From NCBI GenBank assembly GCA_030550115.1, contig JAUQPY010000031.1, positions 1 through 41,174 on the forward strand: a stretch of DNA of 41,174 nucleotides, read 5' to 3'. This stretch comes from Candidatus Micrarchaeota archaeon (GTDB lineage Archaea; Micrarchaeota; Micrarchaeia; Anstonellales; J096). A program made the position numbers and the translations under genes. Shown here in pieces: positions 25,500 through 41,174 of this stretch (position 1 is its first letter; each line of letters starts with the position of its first letter). The notes beneath the pieces were generated by a model, which was not told the DNA's origin, did no database searches, and saw only the letters and a list, made by a program, of their open reading frames with translations.

Positions 25500-25658
25500 A
25501 TGAATAAGTTTATAAAAGCTAGAATAATTGGAGCTAGAGCTCTGCAATTATCCTGTGGTGCTGAATCTGAACTCAAGAACAAGGTAAAGGATAGTGTTGA
25601 ATTAAGCTATTTGGAGTTTTCCAAATCAAAAATCCCATTGGAGGTGAGGAAGAGATGA
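25500..25658 (+). CDS. rpoK: DNA-directed RNA polymerase subunit Rpo6 (K)
   Basis: ARIIGARALQL..GA and KIPLEVR; ATG 25500 lies 30 nt after TTTAAA. Confidence 0.92.
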   Translation: MNKFIKARIIGARALQLSCGAESELKNKVKDSVELSYLEFSKSKIPLEVRKR

Positions 25659-26494
25659 ATCCAATGATATTTATTCTAGGTTTTCTAGTATTGTTATCTG
25701 GATGTATTGATCTGGGGAGTGGATCCGGAAATACAAAGCAGTGTAGTGCTGACAGCGATTGTAAGCCATATCAAACCTGCTCTGGTGGGAGTTGTGTATT
25801 GAAAGCTGGTGCATGCGAATCTGATAGAGATTGTGATTTCTACCAGGTATGTGATAGGAGAAACAATCAGTGTATTGTTAAAGAAGGGTTCTGTGTGGAT
25901 AATAACCAATGTAAGCTCCACCAATTCTGCAATCTTACCACAAAGAAATGTGATGTAAGACCTGGTTTCTGTGAGAAGAATAGTGATTGTGAGAGTTGGC
26001 AAACTTGTGATACCAAGACTTTTAGATGTGTAGCAAGAGCAGGATATTGTGTGAATGATAAGGATTGTCAATCTTGGGAGAGATGCGGATTGATGAATAG
26101 ATGTGAACCTCTGCCTGGTAGATGTAATGTAGATGGAGATTGTAGATCTTATGAAAAATGTGATAAGAAATCTAATAGGTGTGTCCCTAAAGATGGGTTC
26201 TGTAATGTGGATGGAGATTGTAAGAATTGGGAGTATTGTAATAATAATAAATGTGTAGTACTCCCTGGTAGATGTAATTCAAATTCAGATTGTGCCCAGT
26301 GGGAAACTTGTAATATGAGAAAGAATATATGTGAATTGGCTCCAGGTAGATGTGTATCAAATTCAGATTGTCAATCATGGCAATACTGTGATATAGGAGT
26401 TAAAATGTGTAAGCCCCAACCTGGTAGATGTGCAAGCTCTCAGGATTGTAGAGAGGGACAAATATGCGATACAATGACGAACACCTGCAGATAA
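25655..26494 (+). CDS. Cys-rich repeat lipoprotein
   Basis: Lipobox-like LLSGC signal followed by 10 tandem four-Cys repeats. Confidence 0.88.
   Translation: MNPMIFILGFLVLLSGCIDLGSGSGNTKQCSADSDCKPYQTCSGGSCVLKAGACESDRDCDFYQVCDRRNNQCIVKEGFCVDNNQCKLHQFCNLTTKKCDVRPGFCEKNSDCESWQTCDTKTFRCVARAGYCVNDKDCQSWERCGLMNRCEPLPGRCNVDGDCRSYEKCDKKSNRCVPKDGFCNVDGDCKNWEYCNNNKCVVLPGRCNSNSDCAQWETCNMRKNICELAPGRCVSNSDCQSWQYCDIGVKMCKPQPGRCASSQDCREGQICDTMTNTCR
25742..26488 (+). repeat. Ten tandem ~25-aa repeats C-x5-C-x5-C-x4-6-C-x4-G-x
   Basis: For example CNVDGDCRSYEKCDKKSNRC and CNSNSDCAQWETCNMRKNIC; DNA-level recurrence of cctggtagatgt and tcaaattcagattgt. Confidence 0.9.
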
Positions 26495-30478: not shown

Positions 30479-31306
30479 TTAAAAGTTCAACTCTTCATAG
30501 ATCCTGTTCTTCTCCTCTTTGGGAAGTGCTACTAGGGAGAATATAAGGAGCTTGGATAGATACAAAGCCTGTTCAGTATCGTAGAAAGCCAGTAATCCGA
30601 GGTAAGTACTCTTGATCAATTCTATTAATTTCTGTTTATTTTCTTCTATTTTAGTCTGTATTGCAGGTAAATTTGTTCTATTGATAAGTTTTCTGAGTTC
30701 AATAATTTTCCTATCTAAATAGAATATCTCTAAAAATTTCTCTCTTATGGATTTGGGTAATAGCATAGGATTATAACCTAATGGAAAACTGTAGCTGCCC
30801 AACAGATATTCTATTATTTCTGGCTTATATTCGATATTGTTCTCTAGTGCAAATACAACTGCCTGCATTTTCATTATCCTATCCACTACATCATCGCTAT
30901 AATTGATAGCTCTGTCCACCATACCCTGAATAGCAGATTTCTCAACAACAGTCCCTTTGGATCTGAAGTAATCGTATATTAGATAAACTATCGGATCGTA
31001 TTCCCCCTGCGAATATGGTTTTATGTTATGTATTAGGATCTCTATGTATTCTTTCAATTCTGGACTCTGATTAATACGTTCTAGAAGTTGATTTGCCTCC
31101 TGTATGGTTAATCTTAGCTCTACAAGGATCTGAATTGCCTTTTTTATGTATTCATCATCCAGATGTCTCTGAAAAAGTTTGATATATATGATAGCTAGTG
31201 ATAACTTATCCTCATCAGATAGATGTTTAGCTTTTCTGAATGCATATTCTGCTAACTGTACATACCCATTTGCATATAATACTTTTGCAGCGATATTATA
31301 TATCAT
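30479..31306 (-). CDS. Hypothetical all-helical (TPR-like N-terminus) protein
   Basis: A..LY..G....A..AF.KA pattern; ATGA overlap with the SMC-like gene. Confidence 0.65.
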   Translation of the reverse strand: MIYNIAAKVLYANGYVQLAEYAFRKAKHLSDEDKLSLAIIYIKLFQRHLDDEYIKKAIQILVELRLTIQEANQLLERINQSPELKEYIEILIHNIKPYSQGEYDPIVYLIYDYFRSKGTVVEKSAIQGMVDRAINYSDDVVDRIMKMQAVVFALENNIEYKPEIIEYLLGSYSFPLGYNPMLLPKSIREKFLEIFYLDRKIIELRKLINRTNLPAIQTKIEENKQKLIELIKSTYLGLLAFYDTEQALYLSKLLIFSLVALPKEEKNRIYEELNF

Positions 31307-33555
31307 AACAATACTTTACTATAATTTACAGATCCATCCTTGCTCTTTTCTCTGAATACTTGGATAACCTGATTCCACATCACATTATTCTTTAATCTAT
31401 CATCATGTGTTATTATTATAAATTGATCTATATGATCTAAACTCAGTCTATTGATATTGTCTACAAGATTATCTATTGAAGAATCATCTAGATTATGGGT
31501 TGGTTCATCTAGTATTATAACTCTTAATCTCCTAGTGATCAGATTCAGAATGGCCAGTCTCAATGATAGAGCATAAATAGTTTTCTCCCCTCCACTCAAT
31601 CGATCAGCGGAAACCTCATTATCTCCTATGGAGATCTTCAATTCATATCCATCAGATTTATCTACAGCTATCTTTGGATCATTGTAAACTACACCTGCGT
31701 AAAGAGAATTCCAGAATAGACCCATACCTAGATTGATGTTCTGTATATATACTTGTCTATTTTTCGTCTGTAGATCTGAAATTCTATTCTTTATCTCCTC
31801 TAATTCTTTCTGCAAAGCTCTTAATATCTCCACACGCTCTATTTTCCTTTTCATATCTTCAATATCTCTCTCCAGTATCTCTATAGACTTCTGGAACTCT
31901 TTGCTCTGATTAGTTAGTAGGTTTATTTCTGATTTAGTACGTTTTATAGCCTCTTGTAATTCTACATATCTTTTAGACCATTCTCTGTATATTTTATCGT
32001 TTATCTCTAGTGATTTGAGTGTTTGATCTATCGATTCTAAGTTTTTAACAAAATTTTCCAACTCCTGCCTCAACTCTAATAATCTTTTCTGATCTTTCTT
32101 ATAAGATTCTATATTTCCAAGTGCTCTAGATATCTGGTCTCTGCGTCTCTCCAATTCTTTACCATAATCAGAAGGGATTTTACTCATGATATCTTTAAGT
32201 TGTTCGGAGACACTATTCTTATCATTCTTCAATTTCTCCAACTCTTGCTCCAGAACATTTAACTCATTCCGGATAGAACTGATCTCGGCTTCAATCCTTT
32301 TGGTATCATTATTAACTCTTTCTAATTCATTACTCCATCTACTCTTCTGTTCATTGTACTTAATATGAAGATATAATGCTGCTATCCCAAAAACTATAGC
32401 AGGTAATAAGGCAAGATTTATTACAAATATCCCAATTCCAAGAGCACCCATAGCTAAAATTAAAGCTATTATAAAAGTTAAATTTGAGGGTTTGGACCTG
32501 TTCAGTTGTTCCAACTCCTTTCTTAATGTATCTAATTCAAGATTACGCTCCTGCAAGGTTCTATACAAATCTTCTCTATTTCTAAATACACTATCGTACT
32601 TCTGATTGAGCTGATTCTGCAGATCATTCAATTTCATCGATTGATCTGTATATAACCTAAACTGCTCAATCTCCTTCTCTAGCTGCAATCGTTTCTCTTC
32701 TAATACTTCTGGATCCTCTAACTGAGTATTGCTGATTATCTGTTGCAATTTTTTAATATCCTGATTTAACCTATCTATCTTGGTTTCAGTTGCTATTTTT
32801 TTATCTCTGTATTGAATATATGTATTGTATTTCTGTTCTATTGTTTCCTTCTGTTTAGTCATACTCTCATAATCATTCTGCAATGATCTGAATTGTGAGT
32901 TCAACTCCTCTATTCTGGAGAGAGTGGTTTGATATCCTGATTTGAGTCTCTCCAATTCTTTCTGCTTAGTTCTATAACCATCCAAATCAATCTCCGTCTG
33001 CTTTATCTGATCTTTGATCCTATTTATTATCTTAGTTATCTTATCTATTCTATCCTGTATCTCTTCTATTCCCAATACTCTATCTATATTTAGCTTTAGC
33101 TCTTTAGGAGGCATGTTTATTAGCTGATATATATTGTCTTGAGCTCCATAGAATACATTACCAAATAATCTTTCGTCTATATTCAGAACCCGAGTAATAT
33201 GTTTTAGTATTTCATCATCATTTTCAGATATAAGATTTGAGTTATAATATAGCGCAGATCTACTCGGCTTATCTCTATATAAATTCCTAACGATTCTGAA
33301 ATTCTTCCCATCAACAGAAAACTCAATCTCTACCTTTGCAGACTTCTCCCCATCTCGTATGAAATTCCTCCTATTCTGCTTATTAATCCCTCTGTAACTA
33401 GTCTTTACTTCACCGAATAGAGCAAACACAATTCCTTCTACAATACTAGTCTTCCCAGAACCATTCTTACCATGAATTAATATCTTACCATGTCTAAAGG
33501 AGATCTGTGTATCTCGATGAGACATCCAATTCTGCAGTATTAATTTTTGTATCAT
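31303..33555 (-). CDS. Rad50/SbcC-like SMC ATPase with central transmembrane hairpin
   Basis: Walker A GKNGSGKT, Q-loop YGAQ, long coiled coils, signature LSGGE, Walker B ILDEPT, D-loop NLD, H-loop ITHD; hydrophobic residues 359-398; no Cys. Confidence 0.9.
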   Translation of the reverse strand: MIQKLILQNWMSHRDTQISFRHGKILIHGKNGSGKTSIVEGIVFALFGEVKTSYRGINKQNRRNFIRDGEKSAKVEIEFSVDGKNFRIVRNLYRDKPSRSALYYNSNLISENDDEILKHITRVLNIDERLFGNVFYGAQDNIYQLINMPPKELKLNIDRVLGIEEIQDRIDKITKIINRIKDQIKQTEIDLDGYRTKQKELERLKSGYQTTLSRIEELNSQFRSLQNDYESMTKQKETIEQKYNTYIQYRDKKIATETKIDRLNQDIKKLQQIISNTQLEDPEVLEEKRLQLEKEIEQFRLYTDQSMKLNDLQNQLNQKYDSVFRNREDLYRTLQERNLELDTLRKELEQLNRSKPSNLTFIIALILAMGALGIGIFVINLALLPAIVFGIAALYLHIKYNEQKSRWSNELERVNNDTKRIEAEISSIRNELNVLEQELEKLKNDKNSVSEQLKDIMSKIPSDYGKELERRRDQISRALGNIESYKKDQKRLLELRQELENFVKNLESIDQTLKSLEINDKIYREWSKRYVELQEAIKRTKSEINLLTNQSKEFQKSIEILERDIEDMKRKIERVEILRALQKELEEIKNRISDLQTKNRQVYIQNINLGMGLFWNSLYAGVVYNDPKIAVDKSDGYELKISIGDNEVSADRLSGGEKTIYALSLRLAILNLITRRLRVIILDEPTHNLDDSSIDNLVDNINRLSLDHIDQFIIITHDDRLKNNVMWNQVIQVFREKSKDGSVNYSKVLL

Positions 33556-34289
33556 ATTTTTCTAATTGATAGAGAAAACTTATTAAAATATAAATTAGCC
33601 CCTAGAATCACAAGGAATGGTACTATTATAAATATGTTTATTATCAACATTATAATTCTAACAATATCCAATGGAAATACTAGACCAAATATGAAGATTA
33701 GAATTAGATTTATTATCAAGCCTATAGCAGAATACATAATAGGATAGATTGCTAGCTCTTTTCTAAAAATATATAGTTTCCTAATTGCTCTATCAAAATC
33801 GACTTCTTCTATAACAATAGCGTATGGTATAAATAGGAATATATAGCTGATTAGGAAGAATATTATAGAGAGTATCATCGGATCCCATGCATTTACATAC
33901 CATAACACTGAGAGATTGAACTGTATCAGAAACCAGATTATAAATATCTTATAAACCTCTGGAAAACTAGAGGTGATGTTTTTTATAAACACACTTGGAT
34001 ATATTCTATCGGCTCTGTATTCTTTGGTAGCTACTGTTAATATAATCAGAGATAGGGTATAGAGTGCAATAACGATCAGAAAAGAGAATAGTGCAAATAT
34101 GAACTCGAGTAGATTTATTTCAGTTATCTTAGATATACGCAGGAATATTCCTGTAACTGAAATATATATGTAATCTTGAAAGGTCAATATTAGAATACCC
34201 GTGACTATAAGTATAACAAATCCTAATAATATGATCAGATCATACGCCTGTTTAAATATCTCTATACTACTTTTAATCTCAAATATCAT
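33552..34289 (-). CDS. Multi-pass membrane protein (about 6 TM)
   Basis: Strongly hydrophobic ORF; ATG 34289 preferred (TATA 27 nt upstream, avoids overlap with the divergent gene); ATGA overlap with the SMC-like gene. Confidence 0.75.
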   Translation of the reverse strand: MIFEIKSSIEIFKQAYDLIILLGFVILIVTGILILTFQDYIYISVTGIFLRISKITEINLLEFIFALFSFLIVIALYTLSLIILTVATKEYRADRIYPSVFIKNITSSFPEVYKIFIIWFLIQFNLSVLWYVNAWDPMILSIIFFLISYIFLFIPYAIVIEEVDFDRAIRKLYIFRKELAIYPIMYSAIGLIINLILIFIFGLVFPLDIVRIIMLIINIFIIVPFLVILGANLYFNKFSLSIRKI

Positions 34290-34333
34290 ATATATATTAA
34301 AACCTAAGTTTTTAAATATAAACAGGTGATTCC

Positions 34334-34999
34334 ATGAGAAACTTATTAGATGCCGAGACAAGAAAGATCCTAACAGATTATCTGAGCAAGATGGAGAGCC
34401 AGGTAGAACTAGTTGTTATTCTAGATCACAATTCCCCAAATTGTGTTTACTGTAAAGATATACAACAACTGTTTACAGAACTAGCCGAATTGAATATACC
34501 TAAACTGAAGATAACTATATTTGATAAATATCATCCTGAATTTGAGAAGAGATATGGAATACGTGAATCTGATGTTCCTGCTATTGTGTTTGTGAATAAT
34601 AATATAAAAGGACAGATAGTCTATAGAGGCGTTCCATCAGAACAGGAATTTAGTGTATTTATAGAGACTATATTAGAGGTATCATTGGGACACATACATA
34701 TCCCTCAGGAACAAATAGAGAAATTAAATAGAATCGATAAGAAAATTAAGATAAATGTCTATGTAACCCCAACATGTCCATACTGTCCAACAGCAGTAGC
34801 AATGGCATTTGCAACAGCAATGGTTAATCCAAATCTCTCAGCACATGCAGTTGAAGTGACCGAATTTGAGGAGGAGGGAGCTAAATACAATATAAGAGCT
34901 GTACCTACAATAGTTATAAATGATGGAGCAGTTAAATTTGAGGGAGCATTGCCCTTGGATCGATTTATAGCTAAGATTGAGGAAGCTGCAAAGAAATGA
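34334..34999 (+). CDS. pdo: Protein disulfide oxidoreductase (two thioredoxin folds)
   Basis: CVYC and CPYC, RGVPS..EF, AVP.IVIN, FEGA.P. Confidence 0.9.
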   Translation: MRNLLDAETRKILTDYLSKMESQVELVVILDHNSPNCVYCKDIQQLFTELAELNIPKLKITIFDKYHPEFEKRYGIRESDVPAIVFVNNNIKGQIVYRGVPSEQEFSVFIETILEVSLGHIHIPQEQIEKLNRIDKKIKINVYVTPTCPYCPTAVAMAFATAMVNPNLSAHAVEVTEFEEEGAKYNIRAVPTIVINDGAVKFEGALPLDRFIAKIEEAAKK

Positions 35000-36780: not shown

Positions 36781-38319
36781 ATGGGAATTATTGATATCAT
36801 AACCAGAAATCTATTAATACTGGCTCTAGGTCTGGGGATCGGCCTAGCTATAGCTGTTTTGATATACTTCTACAATCTTATATTCAAGAAAGATCAGGCC
36901 AAATCCTTGGATGCAGTTAAAGATGTTATTATAGTTGTTTTCTATCTGATATTACTATTTGCAATTGATCTTGCGTATAATCTATTCCTATCGGCATGGT
37001 TAGGTATCCCTGTGGGTCCGGGTGATAATCTGAGGATTGCTGAGGCAGTAATCTACAAGGATATCGATAAATTCAGGGAGACTTTGATGTATATATACGT
37101 AGCAGATTTTGTGATTAATCTCTTTGGATCATTTTCAGCACATCTACATGCAGCAATAAATCCGGAGATGACCAAGTTGCAAGGAGTGTCTGTTCTAAAT
37201 AGAGTAATGGAAGGTATGACTTCATTATTACAAAAGGCTAGTTTGGATCCTTACAAAGCAGAGATGGGTATTGATTATTTCTATAAGATGAATTCTGTAA
37301 TACAACTGCTCTACAATGCCTCATATGGTCTGTTCCTAGTTCTTGTATATAAATATATCAAACTCACAGTTATAACTTACTTACCTCTAATTATGTCTAT
37401 CTTTATTCCTTTAGGTCTAGTTCTGATATTCATACCTATTACTAGAAAGGTAGGAATGACTATTGTTGGGTTGGCAGTAACACTTTACTATCTCTTCCCA
37501 GTGTTTATAATATACTCAGACACTGTTCTTAGGAATATGCCTGATTTTGATCACAGATATATTTCAGCTTATATCTCTCCTACCATAGTAGAATTTTTGG
37601 ATAAGAGTTCAGGATCTAATCCTGCCACAAGAGCAGGTTATAAGTACGCATTTATAGAGAGAGAAAAGGCAATACAGAAATCTCTGGATTACGTATTCCT
37701 AGAACAAGATAGGAGCAATATTATGGAGCCTGATCAGAACAATCCTGTGGGGAAGCTGGAGAAAGAAGGAGTAGGTGTGTTTCATATATATTCATTCGTA
37801 GATGCACAATCAGTATGTGACCCAGGGACCAATGACAGAGAAGTTTGTAGAGAATATCAAACAGCTAACATAGGTGACTACAGATCAGAGAATGTATTAG
37901 CTCCTCTTGGATCTCTGTATGCAAATACAGTAAAATACTCTGCAATAGTTAGAGTAGGAACAGCTATAAAACAGGTTATATCCACAGCATCCATAGTATC
38001 ATCTCTAAATCCATTTGCAGTTGCAATGATAAATATACTTGGAATGGCTGTTAATATGTTCCTGTTTGCAATCCAAATAACTCAGGTTTTACCTATCCCT
38101 GGATTGAGCCAAATCCTATATGGAGCTCTAAATATTCCATTCTTACCATTCCTAATGTTTAGAACTGCATTAGAAGCAGCATTGATAGCTTACAAGATAA
38201 TTATATATGGATCTATAACTATCTTTTTAGATATCTTTCTAATTATCACCGGATATAGAGCAGTAGCATCTGTAATTGGAGCTGAGCAGAGAATACTAGG
38301 TTTGGAGAGGGTGCTGTAG
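36781..38319 (+). CDS. Polytopic membrane protein, paralogue 1 (CedA/VirB6-like)
   Basis: Shared motif PLGLVLIFIPITRKVGMTIVGLAVTLYYLFP; large loop with a Cys pair; family call is by resemblance. Confidence 0.55.
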   Translation: MGIIDIITRNLLILALGLGIGLAIAVLIYFYNLIFKKDQAKSLDAVKDVIIVVFYLILLFAIDLAYNLFLSAWLGIPVGPGDNLRIAEAVIYKDIDKFRETLMYIYVADFVINLFGSFSAHLHAAINPEMTKLQGVSVLNRVMEGMTSLLQKASLDPYKAEMGIDYFYKMNSVIQLLYNASYGLFLVLVYKYIKLTVITYLPLIMSIFIPLGLVLIFIPITRKVGMTIVGLAVTLYYLFPVFIIYSDTVLRNMPDFDHRYISAYISPTIVEFLDKSSGSNPATRAGYKYAFIEREKAIQKSLDYVFLEQDRSNIMEPDQNNPVGKLEKEGVGVFHIYSFVDAQSVCDPGTNDREVCREYQTANIGDYRSENVLAPLGSLYANTVKYSAIVRVGTAIKQVISTASIVSSLNPFAVAMINILGMAVNMFLFAIQITQVLPIPGLSQILYGALNIPFLPFLMFRTALEAALIAYKIIIYGSITIFLDIFLIITGYRAVASVIGAEQRILGLERVL

Positions 38320-38320
38320 A

Positions 38321-39394
38321 ATGTTGTCGATCATAGATAGTTTTGTTGTAGCGTTGGTAATGATAGTTGCTGGATATATATTGTTACTATTTGTCATGGC
38401 TAGACTTAGTAGTAACGAAGAGTGGAAACAGAATTTCAAGATAGAGTTGCAACAGCTACTATTGAGTTTGCTATTACTAATAGGTGTATACGCGATAGCA
38501 GGTTTTGTTACTATGATCTATCAATACTATACAGGTGGATTGGATGCATTCAACTATCTATCCATTCAACTAATATCCATAATGAAAAACTTACACTTCT
38601 ATGCATCTCATCTAACTCTTTCAGCATCTCTAATGAGAATGTTCGGAGAGTTTACAAATATAGGTTATCCGCATGGTTCTTATGGATCAGCTAGATTACC
38701 TACTACTCCTGGTGTAGATCTGTTAGCATCAGTTACTTTTCAGATCAGAGATCTGCTTATGATAGCTACAGGTGGTTTGGTTATGCAATCTATACTTTTT
38801 GATCTTATAAAGAATCTAGCACTTACTGTAGTATTGCCTATAGGGATTGTTTTGAGAATCTTGCCAATCACTCGACAATTTGGAAATGAACTGATCGGCC
38901 TGAGTGTTTCATCATATATAATATTACCTATTATTTATTTGGTTTTCTTCCAAACCATCCAAGAAGTTGCTAATGAGAGAGGAGGGTTTATAGAGAGGTT
39001 TGTTGATGGATATCTTGCAATAGGTGACACTAGATTGATAGAGCCAGATAAGATAATCGTTGATATACAGAAAGATCACCAGACCAGTATTCAGGACAGT
39101 ATGGATAGATTGAACAACTATTTTGATAGATATAAATCAGAGATTGATTCAGAAGTAATGGGAAGTACTGCTGATGAGCATAGGCTCTACAGATTCTTTG
39201 AAACCTATTTAACTACTGGATTGATATTAGGATTTCTAAATGTAGGATTTCCCATATCATTTCTATTTCTTTACTCCTTATTGCTATATGCCTCAGGATT
39301 CTTAGTATTTGGATTTGGATTACCAGGATTTGCCATAGCAATAACACTGACAGCTGCTAAGAGTATTAGAGATTCTCTGGAGAGATTGGTATGA
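38321..39394 (+). CDS. Polytopic membrane protein, paralogue 2 (CedA/VirB6-like)
   Basis: PIGIVLRILPITRQFGNELIGLSVSSYIILP. Confidence 0.55.
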   Translation: MLSIIDSFVVALVMIVAGYILLLFVMARLSSNEEWKQNFKIELQQLLLSLLLLIGVYAIAGFVTMIYQYYTGGLDAFNYLSIQLISIMKNLHFYASHLTLSASLMRMFGEFTNIGYPHGSYGSARLPTTPGVDLLASVTFQIRDLLMIATGGLVMQSILFDLIKNLALTVVLPIGIVLRILPITRQFGNELIGLSVSSYIILPIIYLVFFQTIQEVANERGGFIERFVDGYLAIGDTRLIEPDKIIVDIQKDHQTSIQDSMDRLNNYFDRYKSEIDSEVMGSTADEHRLYRFFETYLTTGLILGFLNVGFPISFLFLYSLLLYASGFLVFGFGLPGFAIAITLTAAKSIRDSLERLV

Positions 39395-40578
39395 ACCCAA
39401 TTATAGATGCAGTTGCCCCTATTATAGGGATATCAATTTTAATATACATAATAGCTTATCTCGTTGGGAGAATTCTGAACAAACCTGATATACCTGCCTT
39501 TATCAACATGGAACTCTTATCTCTTATAATTTTCATAGCTCTACTGGTAGTGTTGTTGTATATGTTGGATTTTGCAGTTGATATAACTATATCGAATCTT
39601 AATCCTGATGCAAAATCTGAAGTATGTGATAAATATGGAATATCTATATCAAGATGTCATGTTGCTATAGCAGGATATTTTCTGGAGAGCGTACTTAGGG
39701 AACTTACAGATTATTATATACAGTTAAATGCAGTTCTTCTAACTACTAATTTTGTAAAACAGACTTATTCTGTGAAAGCAATTCAGGGAGATAAATTCGT
39801 AAAGCTAAACATGAATCCATTTATATTCGTACCCTCACTGTACATAGAACCTATAATCGGATTGGTTCAGACGATGTTGCAGTTCGCTATAGCCCAGTTC
39901 ATTGTTCTTTGGTATATCACATCTCCGCAGTTTTTCATAGGTTTCTTGACTTTAGGAATTGTTCTTAGATTATTTGCTGTAACCAAATCGGCTGGTGGAT
40001 TGATAATAGCTCTAGTTATAGGTTTATATTATGTATTCCCAATGGCATATGTTCTGATAGATGTACACTACAGATATTCATATCCTGGTACTTATGGGTT
40101 TGATAAGATAAATACCTATAGAGTTACTGATCATCTCCTATCTACATTTGGAATTCCATTTGGAGATCGATTGGATGCGGCCATAAATGCCATACTGAAT
40201 GTAGAGAGTAAACCTATTGATCCTAATGATCCAGATTCAGTAGTTAGTAGTTTGGGTGCTGCTCTCAGTAACATGGCTAGCATAGCTAAAGCGATTATAA
40301 AGATTGCTACTGTATTAGGTGCCATGCTATCAGTATATACCCTCTCATTTTTACCGCCTGTAGCTATAGGATATACTCTTGTAGGAGATGCTGTTCCAGA
40401 TATAATGAGTAGTATTATTAATATGCCTATTATTCTATTAAACATCTACACTGAATTTTTTATAATATTTGCAGTACTGATATACATATCTCTAATAAGC
40501 ACTGTGGCATTTGTTAAAACACTATCCCCAATATTAGGTGGTGACGTTGAAATTGCTGGTATTACTCGTTTTATATAG
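39391..40578 (+). CDS. Polytopic membrane protein, paralogue 3 (CedA/VirB6-like)
   Basis: TLGIVLRLFAVTKSAGGLIIALVIGLYYVFP; C-terminus LSPILGGDVEIAGITRFI. Confidence 0.55.
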   Translation: MNPIIDAVAPIIGISILIYIIAYLVGRILNKPDIPAFINMELLSLIIFIALLVVLLYMLDFAVDITISNLNPDAKSEVCDKYGISISRCHVAIAGYFLESVLRELTDYYIQLNAVLLTTNFVKQTYSVKAIQGDKFVKLNMNPFIFVPSLYIEPIIGLVQTMLQFAIAQFIVLWYITSPQFFIGFLTLGIVLRLFAVTKSAGGLIIALVIGLYYVFPMAYVLIDVHYRYSYPGTYGFDKINTYRVTDHLLSTFGIPFGDRLDAAINAILNVESKPIDPNDPDSVVSSLGAALSNMASIAKAIIKIATVLGAMLSVYTLSFLPPVAIGYTLVGDAVPDIMSSIINMPIILLNIYTEFFIIFAVLIYISLISTVAFVKTLSPILGGDVEIAGITRFI

Positions 40579-41174
40579 TATCCTATCATTAGCCTCCTCA
40601 TGTGACGATGGGGGGTTTATTAGTCAGGAGTGTATTGAGAGAGATATTTATGGTAAGTTTGATGAGAATCTTGTATATAATGGATTTAAAAAGGTGTTTT
40701 TAGATGCGAGAAATACTGCTCTAAATATGTTAGACAATCTAATCGTAAATGTGATAGGTCCTTATACATTCTGTAAAAGCACTAATCCTGTAGATGTGTC
40801 CAATCTTTTGAATACAGTCGGAATAATAGTATTCATATCACTACTTCTCATATACATTCTAAATGCTATTGCATCTATCTTTGGATTACAATGGAGAATA
40901 TCTCTGTTGGATGAGGCATTTCAGGCTCTATTAACCATATTAGTAGTAATACTGATAGTAGGGGTTATTAATTACTATACTTATAATAATATATTCATTC
41001 AGGCAAAACAGTATGTAGTTAATATAATTATAAATTTCTCCTTCTTCTCCATGTTGCTCAAGACTATTGAAACTATGTTAGTAGCTCTATCGAATATTAC
41101 AATCCCATTTGGTCCTCCAGATGCTAGAGGAATTTTTGGAGTATCATTCTCCCAATTATTCACAATAGTATTCA
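40547..41174 (+). CDS. Polytopic membrane protein, probable paralogue 4, 3' truncated, absent from ORF track
   Basis: Open from TTG 40547 (after GGTGGTGA) to the window end: MKLLVLLVLYSILSLASSCDDGG... then TM-loop-DEAFQALLTILVV, matching IELQQLLLSLLL of paralogue 2. Confidence 0.7.
   Translation, partial: MKLLVLLVLYSILSLASSCDDGGFISQECIERDIYGKFDENLVYNGFKKVFLDARNTALNMLDNLIVNVIGPYTFCKSTNPVDVSNLLNTVGIIVFISLLLIYILNAIASIFGLQWRISLLDEAFQALLTILVVILIVGVINYYTYNNIFIQAKQYVVNIIINFSFFSMLLKTIETMLVALSNITIPFGPPDARGIFGVSFSQLFTIVF

Follow-up and report, generated by a model that had tools for sequence, protein, structure and literature searches.

A Rad50-derived ATPase of Micrarchaeota with a hydrophobic hairpin in the position of the zinc hook

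The zinc hook, a CxxC motif at the apex of the antiparallel coiled coil, is regarded as defining Rad50 and as essential to its function, and in yeast the loss of the hook resembles a null mutation. Here we describe a gene (P0001) on the minus strand of a 41,174-nucleotide stretch of DNA (the window) from Candidatus Micrarchaeota archaeon, which encodes a Rad50-derived ATPase with an uncharged hydrophobic hairpin in place of the hook. The window is one contig (C5) of a genome assembly (G000) that comprises 575,622 bases in 31 contigs and is rated 84% complete.

The closest described analogue is SbcE (YhaN) of Bacillus subtilis. According to Krishnamurthy et al. (2010, PMC2811018), SbcE has no CxxC motif, its central domain is hydrophobic and insoluble, it pairs with an SbcD-like nuclease, SbcF (YhaO), and in competent cells it collects at the pole. 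To the extent of that description, P0001 is alike in being an SbcC/Rad50-like ATPase with a hydrophobic central domain devoid of CxxC, and the comparison with SbcE/YhaN made in an earlier reading of the DNA (the sequence-only reading) is apt. P0001 differs in having no adjacent nuclease gene, its neighbours encoding a membrane protein and an all-alpha protein, and in falling below the gathering score of the Pfam SbcE/YhaN head family, AAA_27 (16.6 versus 22 bits).

Canonical archaeal Rad50, represented by the structures from M. jannaschii (3AUX/3AV0/5F3W) and P. furiosus (1F2T/1II8), shares with P0001 the head fold and all of the ATPase motifs, and the short hook-bearing Rad50s of Micrarchaeota (~750-780 amino acids (aa)) have an antiparallel coiled coil equal in length to that of P0001. 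The difference from canonical Rad50 lies at the apex, where P0001 has a 43-residue uncharged hairpin instead of CxxC. ASRP, ClsN (coalescin) and Sph likewise belong to the SMC-related ATPases of archaea and have a coiled coil. A zinc hook is reported for the vast majority of ASRPs (Yoshinaga et al. 2022, PMC9389158), whereas P0001 has no Cys and reaches 83 bits against the 300-bit NCBIfam cut-off for ASRP, a score below those of the Rad50 models.

Architecture of P0001

The open reading frame of P0001 (31303..33555, stop codon included) encodes 750 aa, and its assignment comes from the translation and from matches in NCBIfam, PDB sequences and Foldseek. The N-terminal half of the ATP-binding cassette (ABC) head occupies aa 1-160 (33076..33555), as judged from motifs, from AlphaFold2 confidence (predicted local distance difference test, pLDDT, ~81-96) and from 52-57% identity among hairpin-bearing relatives. 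It contains the Walker A motif GKNGSGKT (residues 29-36; 33448-33471) and the Q-loop glutamine Q139 (33139-33141), both located by motif search. The C-terminal half, delimited by motifs, alignment and the AlphaFold2 model (aa 619-750; 31306..31701), contains the signature LSGG (residues 653-656; 31588-31599) and Walker B VIILDE (residues 679-684; 31504-31521), found in the same way, as well as the D-loop D690 and the H-loop H717 (31405-31407), which are invariant in a 60-sequence alignment. The head motifs are thus intact, as the sequence-only reading had stated.

Between the two halves of the head run two arms. The ascending arm (aa 163-353; 32497..33069) is modelled as helices 163-190, 194-275 and 282-353, and the descending arm (aa 399-618; 31702..32361) as helices 384-457, 464-515 and 520-618. 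The AlphaFold2 model, with a mean pLDDT of 81 and head blocks mostly at 81-96, therefore places long helices (163-353 and 384-618) on both sides of a helix-loop-helix at residues 359-398. This agrees with the position at the coiled-coil apex proposed from the sequence; in an alignment, this stretch also fills exactly the columns that hold CPxC in relatives.

The apex itself (aa 356-398; 32362..32490), delimited by sequence, alignment and the AlphaFold2 model, is the longest run without D, E, K or R in the protein, 43 residues. The 40 residues singled out earlier as uncharged (359-398; 32362-32481) lie within this run, and their mapping to the DNA is exact. The best 19-residue Kyte-Doolittle mean in the apex is 2.86, and the only polar side chains between the flanking charges are S, N, T, N, Y and H. 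No uncharged run of 43 residues arose in 20,000 shuffles of P0001 (maximum 41, mean 15), a protein in which 32% of residues are charged. The translation contains no Cys in its 750 aa, as had been noted, so that P0001, with a hairpin in the hook columns, lacks the CxxC zinc hook by which the Rad50 family is recognized.

The region around the gene is AT-rich (G+C ~32-36%). Contigs from two other studies cover positions 31000-34400 without a break, with 4 substitutions and no insertions or deletions, and a contig from a third study covers 31701-32824. Since independent contigs span the region, the apex segment is not an assembly artefact.

By family, P0001 matches AAA_23 and SMC_N in Pfam; SMC_hinge was not among the 25 families listed of the 29 that matched. 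A true SMC protein with a hinge domain (68.7 bits) is encoded separately in the same genome, on contig C30. The best NCBIfam models are all Rad50 models (top, PRK03918, 195 bits), with arcadin-4 (107 bits), SMC and ASRP (83 bits) ranking below them. Among solved structures, the closest sequence relative is M. jannaschii Rad50 (5f3w, E 4.2e-34), followed by the P. furiosus and T. maritima Rad50s, while the solved SMC relatives are weaker (E 1e-11). The top Foldseek match of the predicted structure is also a Rad50 (7zr1, E 5e-27).

Descent from hook-bearing Rad50

An exhaustive search of representative proteins returned 10,502 sequences at E <= 0.001, of which we examined the best 150 together with the query. 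CxxC, nearly always as CPxC, lies at the midpoint in 144 of these 151 rows. Five have instead a mid-protein hydrophobic stretch with 0-1 Cys, and two have neither hook nor stretch. A sixth hairpin protein (P0003) came from a word-based search. The carriers form a small clade of tiny hot-spring archaea (Micrarchaeota, DPANN). In other genomes of the phylum, 27 of 29 Rad50 loci have the hook and 2 the hairpin; this tally includes two unpublished genomes (G198 and G029), on which no conclusion here depends.

Both forms occur within a single genus. The GTDB genus of the window genome (g1) consists of six genomes (G000, G299, G176, G308, G260 and G310). Four encode the hairpin: G000 itself, G299, with a protein 95% identical to P0001, G176 (P0004) and G308 (P0058). 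The Rad50s of the other two, G260 and G310 (P0061), have a CPVC hook and only 2 Cys each; that of G260 matches Pfam Rad50_zn_hook at 28.9 bits (cut-off 24.3). The same gene for a polytopic membrane protein overlaps the start of Rad50 in all six genomes. A metagenome scan with an alignment of the clade returned only two loci, one of them a weak match. The other (L085) encodes a hook-bearing Rad50 (P0059) in the order thioredoxin-like protein, membrane protein, Rad50, helical protein, glutamyl-tRNA synthetase (GluRS). As this gene order is common to hook and hairpin forms, it is older than the change at the apex, and the hairpin arose in place. The comparison of gene order covers the loci other than those of P0003 and P0057.

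The phylogeny gives the same direction of change. In a quick IQ-TREE tree of 50 rows with the apex masked, the six hairpin proteins form one clade, with a value of 100 in the Shimodaira-Hasegawa-like approximate likelihood ratio test (SH-aLRT). These six group with the hook-bearing proteins of the genus and with P0059 (SH-aLRT 97), nested among the hook-bearing Rad50s of Micrarchaeota. A FastTree analysis of 33 rows agrees in placing the Micrarchaeota hairpin clade inside archaeal Rad50. Judged by phylogeny and by the gene order conserved with hook-bearing Rad50, P0001 is thus a Rad50 by descent, without the hook that defines the family.

We searched for a source of the new apex. No hook-like or coiled-coil sequence was found in the antisense or shifted frames of the apex DNA, and no donor emerged when the apex was compared by tblastn with the whole genome (best other match E 0.06). 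In the ESM Atlas, the matches of the apex region were all unnamed clusters (0.85-0.90) and uninformative.

A hydrophobic filler, left behind after loss of the hook by a gene decaying in a shrinking genome, would suit the very small genome (0.58 Mb) and the low conservation of the coiled coils (17-27% identity). The reading frame is, however, intact in six lineages whose whole proteins are 34-39% identical, the heads are 52-62% identical with invariant catalytic residues, and the apex has stayed hydrophobic despite rapid turnover. We find decay scarcely credible; as judged from these comparisons, Rad50 in the hairpin clade remains under selection.

The sequence-only reading had asked whether the protein nests within a family already described as having such a segment. 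The SbcE/YhaN side of our trees is represented by a bacterial YhaN-like protein (P0051) and the family of P0021. In the 33-row FastTree, P0051 clusters, as does the P0021 family, with SbcC-like proteins of bacteria, apart from the Micrarchaeota clade. Forcing all hairpin proteins into one clade, a grouping chosen after the first tree had been seen, worsened the log-likelihood by 111 and was rejected by the approximately unbiased test (p-AU 8.6e-07). The separate positions in the tree and this rejection imply that the hairpin design arose at least twice. With AAA_27 below threshold as well, P0001 does not nest in SbcE/YhaN, and by these sequence comparisons the Micrarchaeota hairpin is convergent with SbcE/YhaN-type proteins and of independent origin.

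The P0021 family, whose sources are named as Nitrososphaeria or Bathyarchaeota archaeon, consists of Rad50/SbcC-like ATPases of 750-800 aa. Of the 120 family members listed, 119 have a mid-protein hydrophobic hairpin and one, a fragment of 437 aa, does not; a hook is absent from all of them. P0021 is only 23% identical to P0001 (E 8.9e-15) and lies on the other side of the tree. Our literature searches found no publication on this family and none in which an archaeal Rad50 is said to have a membrane apex; the archaeal SMC-superfamily papers listed by one of these searches do not use 'transmembrane' once. The sequence-only reading knew of no characterised archaeal example; a large uncharacterised archaeal family of the same design does exist.

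P0001 might also be no Rad50 orthologue at all, and rather another SMC-like protein, of ASRP/ClsN/Sph, arcadin-4 or YhaN type, that resembles Rad50. Its Rad50 scores lie under the curated cut-offs (195 versus 700 bits for the top model), and ASRP and arcadin-4 models match it too. The Rad50 models nevertheless come first, solved Rad50 is matched far better than solved SMC, and the hook-bearing sisters in the same gene order match both the Rad50 models and Rad50_zn_hook. Together with the sub-threshold AAA_27 score and the rejection of a single clade of all hairpin proteins, this makes a non-Rad50 origin very unlikely.

Proposed membrane anchorage and candidate repair partners

The reading that we favour, and consider probable, is that P0001 works in an Mre11-Rad50 machine and that the hairpin, in place of the hook, fastens the tips of its arms to the membrane. 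According to this proposal, the zinc hook of the antiparallel coiled coil would have been replaced once, in situ, by a hydrophobic helix-turn-helix of 30-43 residues. From the inner face, the hairpin would either cross the cytoplasmic membrane or dip into it, and both arms would lead back to the cytoplasm. The heads, on arms of ~190 residues (roughly 28 nm if extended), would still bind ATP and DNA and cooperate with an Mre11-like nuclease encoded elsewhere, and the membrane would keep the arm tips together in two dimensions, the job done by the zinc hook in other Rad50s. The cellular role could then be the processing or tethering of DNA ends at the membrane.

The apex of the clade has several properties of a membrane segment. 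Lysine or arginine flanks both ends of the uncharged stretch in all six members. These collars are consistent with a hairpin whose arms both lie in the cytoplasm, to which they must return because the two halves of the head have to meet. The apex is also the fastest-evolving part of the protein and yet stays hydrophobic. Between G000 and G299, 11 of the 41 differences lie within the 43-residue apex (25.6% versus 4.2% elsewhere; Fisher p 5e-6); 10 of these 11 are non-polar exchanges (counting G as non-polar), and the remaining one is H to Y. A comparison of P0004 with P0003 gives the same ranking. As read from these alignments, the pattern of substitution is that of a lipid-facing segment, unlike that of a specific interface such as the near-invariant CPxC. 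The hairpin thus probably sits in the cell membrane.

The uncharged stretches of the six members measure 43, 43, 32, 35, 30 and 35 residues, and a monotopic or re-entrant hairpin is, given the short stretches in most of them, as likely as a truly transmembrane one. Of the two-helix membrane anchor proposed from the sequence, the hydrophobic hairpin in the hook position holds, and its K/R flanks fit it. Membrane insertion itself, with a low-confidence model of the apex, is a prediction, and two full spans are put in question by the four members with 30-35 residues.

The hairpin could instead be cytoplasmic, a zinc-free dimerisation or oligomerisation module in which the hairpins of two or more Rad50 molecules form a buried helical bundle that joins the arm tips. 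The known role of the hook is apex-to-apex joining, which any replacement would be expected to retain, and the 30-35-residue versions would suit a compact bundle as well as a bilayer. Overproduced SbcE central domain, moreover, is described just as 'insoluble' (PMC2811018), by which membrane residence is not proven. A soluble module is hard to reconcile with the near absence of a polar face, with fast drift through almost exclusively non-polar exchanges, unlike a packing interface, and with K/R collars on both sides, which are typical of membrane segments. We regard it as unlikely.

The proposed machine also needs a nuclease. A 348-aa Mre11-like phosphoesterase, in which all Mre11-type motif residues are invariant, is encoded on another contig (C21) of G000, and homologues are present in four of the five genomes searched (G299, G176, G083 and G270). 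For those of G083 and G270, the top-scoring models are Mre11 models (93 and 81 bits, cut-off 500 bits). RadA and two HerA-like ATPases are also present in G000. RadA lies ~2 kb from a HerA-like (DUF87) ATPase on contig C3, and the second HerA-like gene ~6 kb from the Mre11-like gene on C21 (L087, L088, L089, L017). The sequence-only reading had noted that YhaN/SbcE-type proteins pair with an Mre11-like nuclease; such a candidate partner exists here, unlinked to Rad50, and no gene for one is adjacent.

Several observations weigh against a membrane-anchored Mre11-Rad50 machine. We infer membrane insertion from hydrophobicity, charge distribution and substitution pattern, and the AlphaFold2 apex has a low pLDDT of 42-54. 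Stretches of 30-35 residues, as in four of the six members, are short for two full spans and a turn. The scores for the Rad50 and Mre11 families are all far under the curated equivalog cut-offs, and the only solved-structure matches of the G000 Mre11-like protein, although to MRE11, are weak (E 0.003-0.009). The Mre11-like gene lies apart from Rad50, a search of G260 (83% complete) did not find it, and NurA was not found in G000 at its 84% completeness. Finally, no RNA run was among the listed sequencing runs that contain this region.

That the Mre11-like gene is unlinked to Rad50 would also suit a protein that has left DNA repair and become a membrane-tethered ATPase for DNA uptake, foreign-DNA defence or chromosome tethering, with or without Mre11. 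B. subtilis SbcE, the closest analogue, collects at the DNA-uptake pole, and its loss mildly reduces transformation (PMC2811018). In each of the four hairpin genomes of the genus, however, P0001 or its counterpart is the sole Rad50-like gene found (no second one was detected at 83-88% completeness, 84% for the 0.58-Mb G000), and another function would leave the duties of Rad50 vacant. Mre11-like, RadA and HerA-like genes are retained, the gene order is that of the hook-bearing sisters, and the flanking genes are housekeeping ones (thioredoxin-like, GluRS, tyrosyl- or tryptophanyl-tRNA synthetase-like, and ribosomal protein). A departure from repair therefore seems improbable to us.

The sister species with hook and hairpin constitute a natural swap experiment on what the hook contributes, which sets apex joining, a task that a membrane could provide, against specific zinc chemistry. 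The repeated origin of the hairpin suggests that membrane-tethered Mre11-Rad50-like machines are a recurrent, unstudied design. A wider reading, which we offer as a doubtful but conceivable extension, is that in this genus the lipid membrane took over the job of a zinc hook regarded as universal, that holding the tips together in two dimensions is all that Mre11-Rad50 needs of it, and that the tethered machine acts perhaps at the envelope of a host-attached symbiont, for example on DNA passing through cell-cell contacts.

Neighbouring genes and other features of the window

Upstream of P0001, on the same strand, lies the gene of the polytopic membrane protein (33552..34289), the stop of which overlaps the Rad50 start by 4 nucleotides. 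Its mechanically called reading frame begins at a TTG at 34361, which is probably too far upstream, as homologues start at the position of the ATG at 34289; from this ATG the protein has 245 aa. It has no match in Pfam or NCBIfam, and its look-alikes in the ESM Atlas are unnamed clusters from Microcaldota and Iainarchaeota. Of 151 genomes searched in the order, 138 have the gene, as a single copy; beyond this lineage it does not lie beside Rad50. It also precedes the hook-bearing Rad50 in G260, G310 and L085.

Downstream lies a lineage-specific gene for an all-alpha protein of 275 aa (30479..31306, minus strand), the start of which overlaps the Rad50 stop by 4 nucleotides. Only 7 relatives were found in 5.8 billion clusters. 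Its AlphaFold model is all-alpha (pLDDT 84.8), and Foldseek found no matching fold in the PDB at E <= 0.001. The protein is 68% identical between G000 and G176, while Rad50 is only ~38-40% identical. In G260 it is encoded on another contig beside GluRS, away from Rad50. There, Rad50 is followed by a gene for a 237-aa protein (L051, 5619-6332, minus strand) with one hydrophobic segment and no family match, which marks a rearrangement between Rad50 and the pair of genes for the helical protein and GluRS.

We considered a three-gene operon as a functional unit and rejected it, the membrane-protein gene being unlinked elsewhere and the 275-aa gene being with GluRS in G260. The membrane protein is probably linked to Rad50 by gene order only. 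With neighbours that are unlinked elsewhere, and with hook forms in the same order, the arrangement reflects inherited gene order and not a partnership at the membrane.

Elsewhere in the window, on the plus strand, positions 25655-26494 encode a protein of 279 aa with 41 Cys and a hydrophobic segment at the N terminus; the Cys count is the same in G299 and G176 and is conspicuous in a genome with a Cys-free Rad50. Positions 36781-41174, also on the plus strand, encode four polytopic membrane proteins in a row (512, 357, 395 and at least 212 aa); G299 and G176 have the first three as well.

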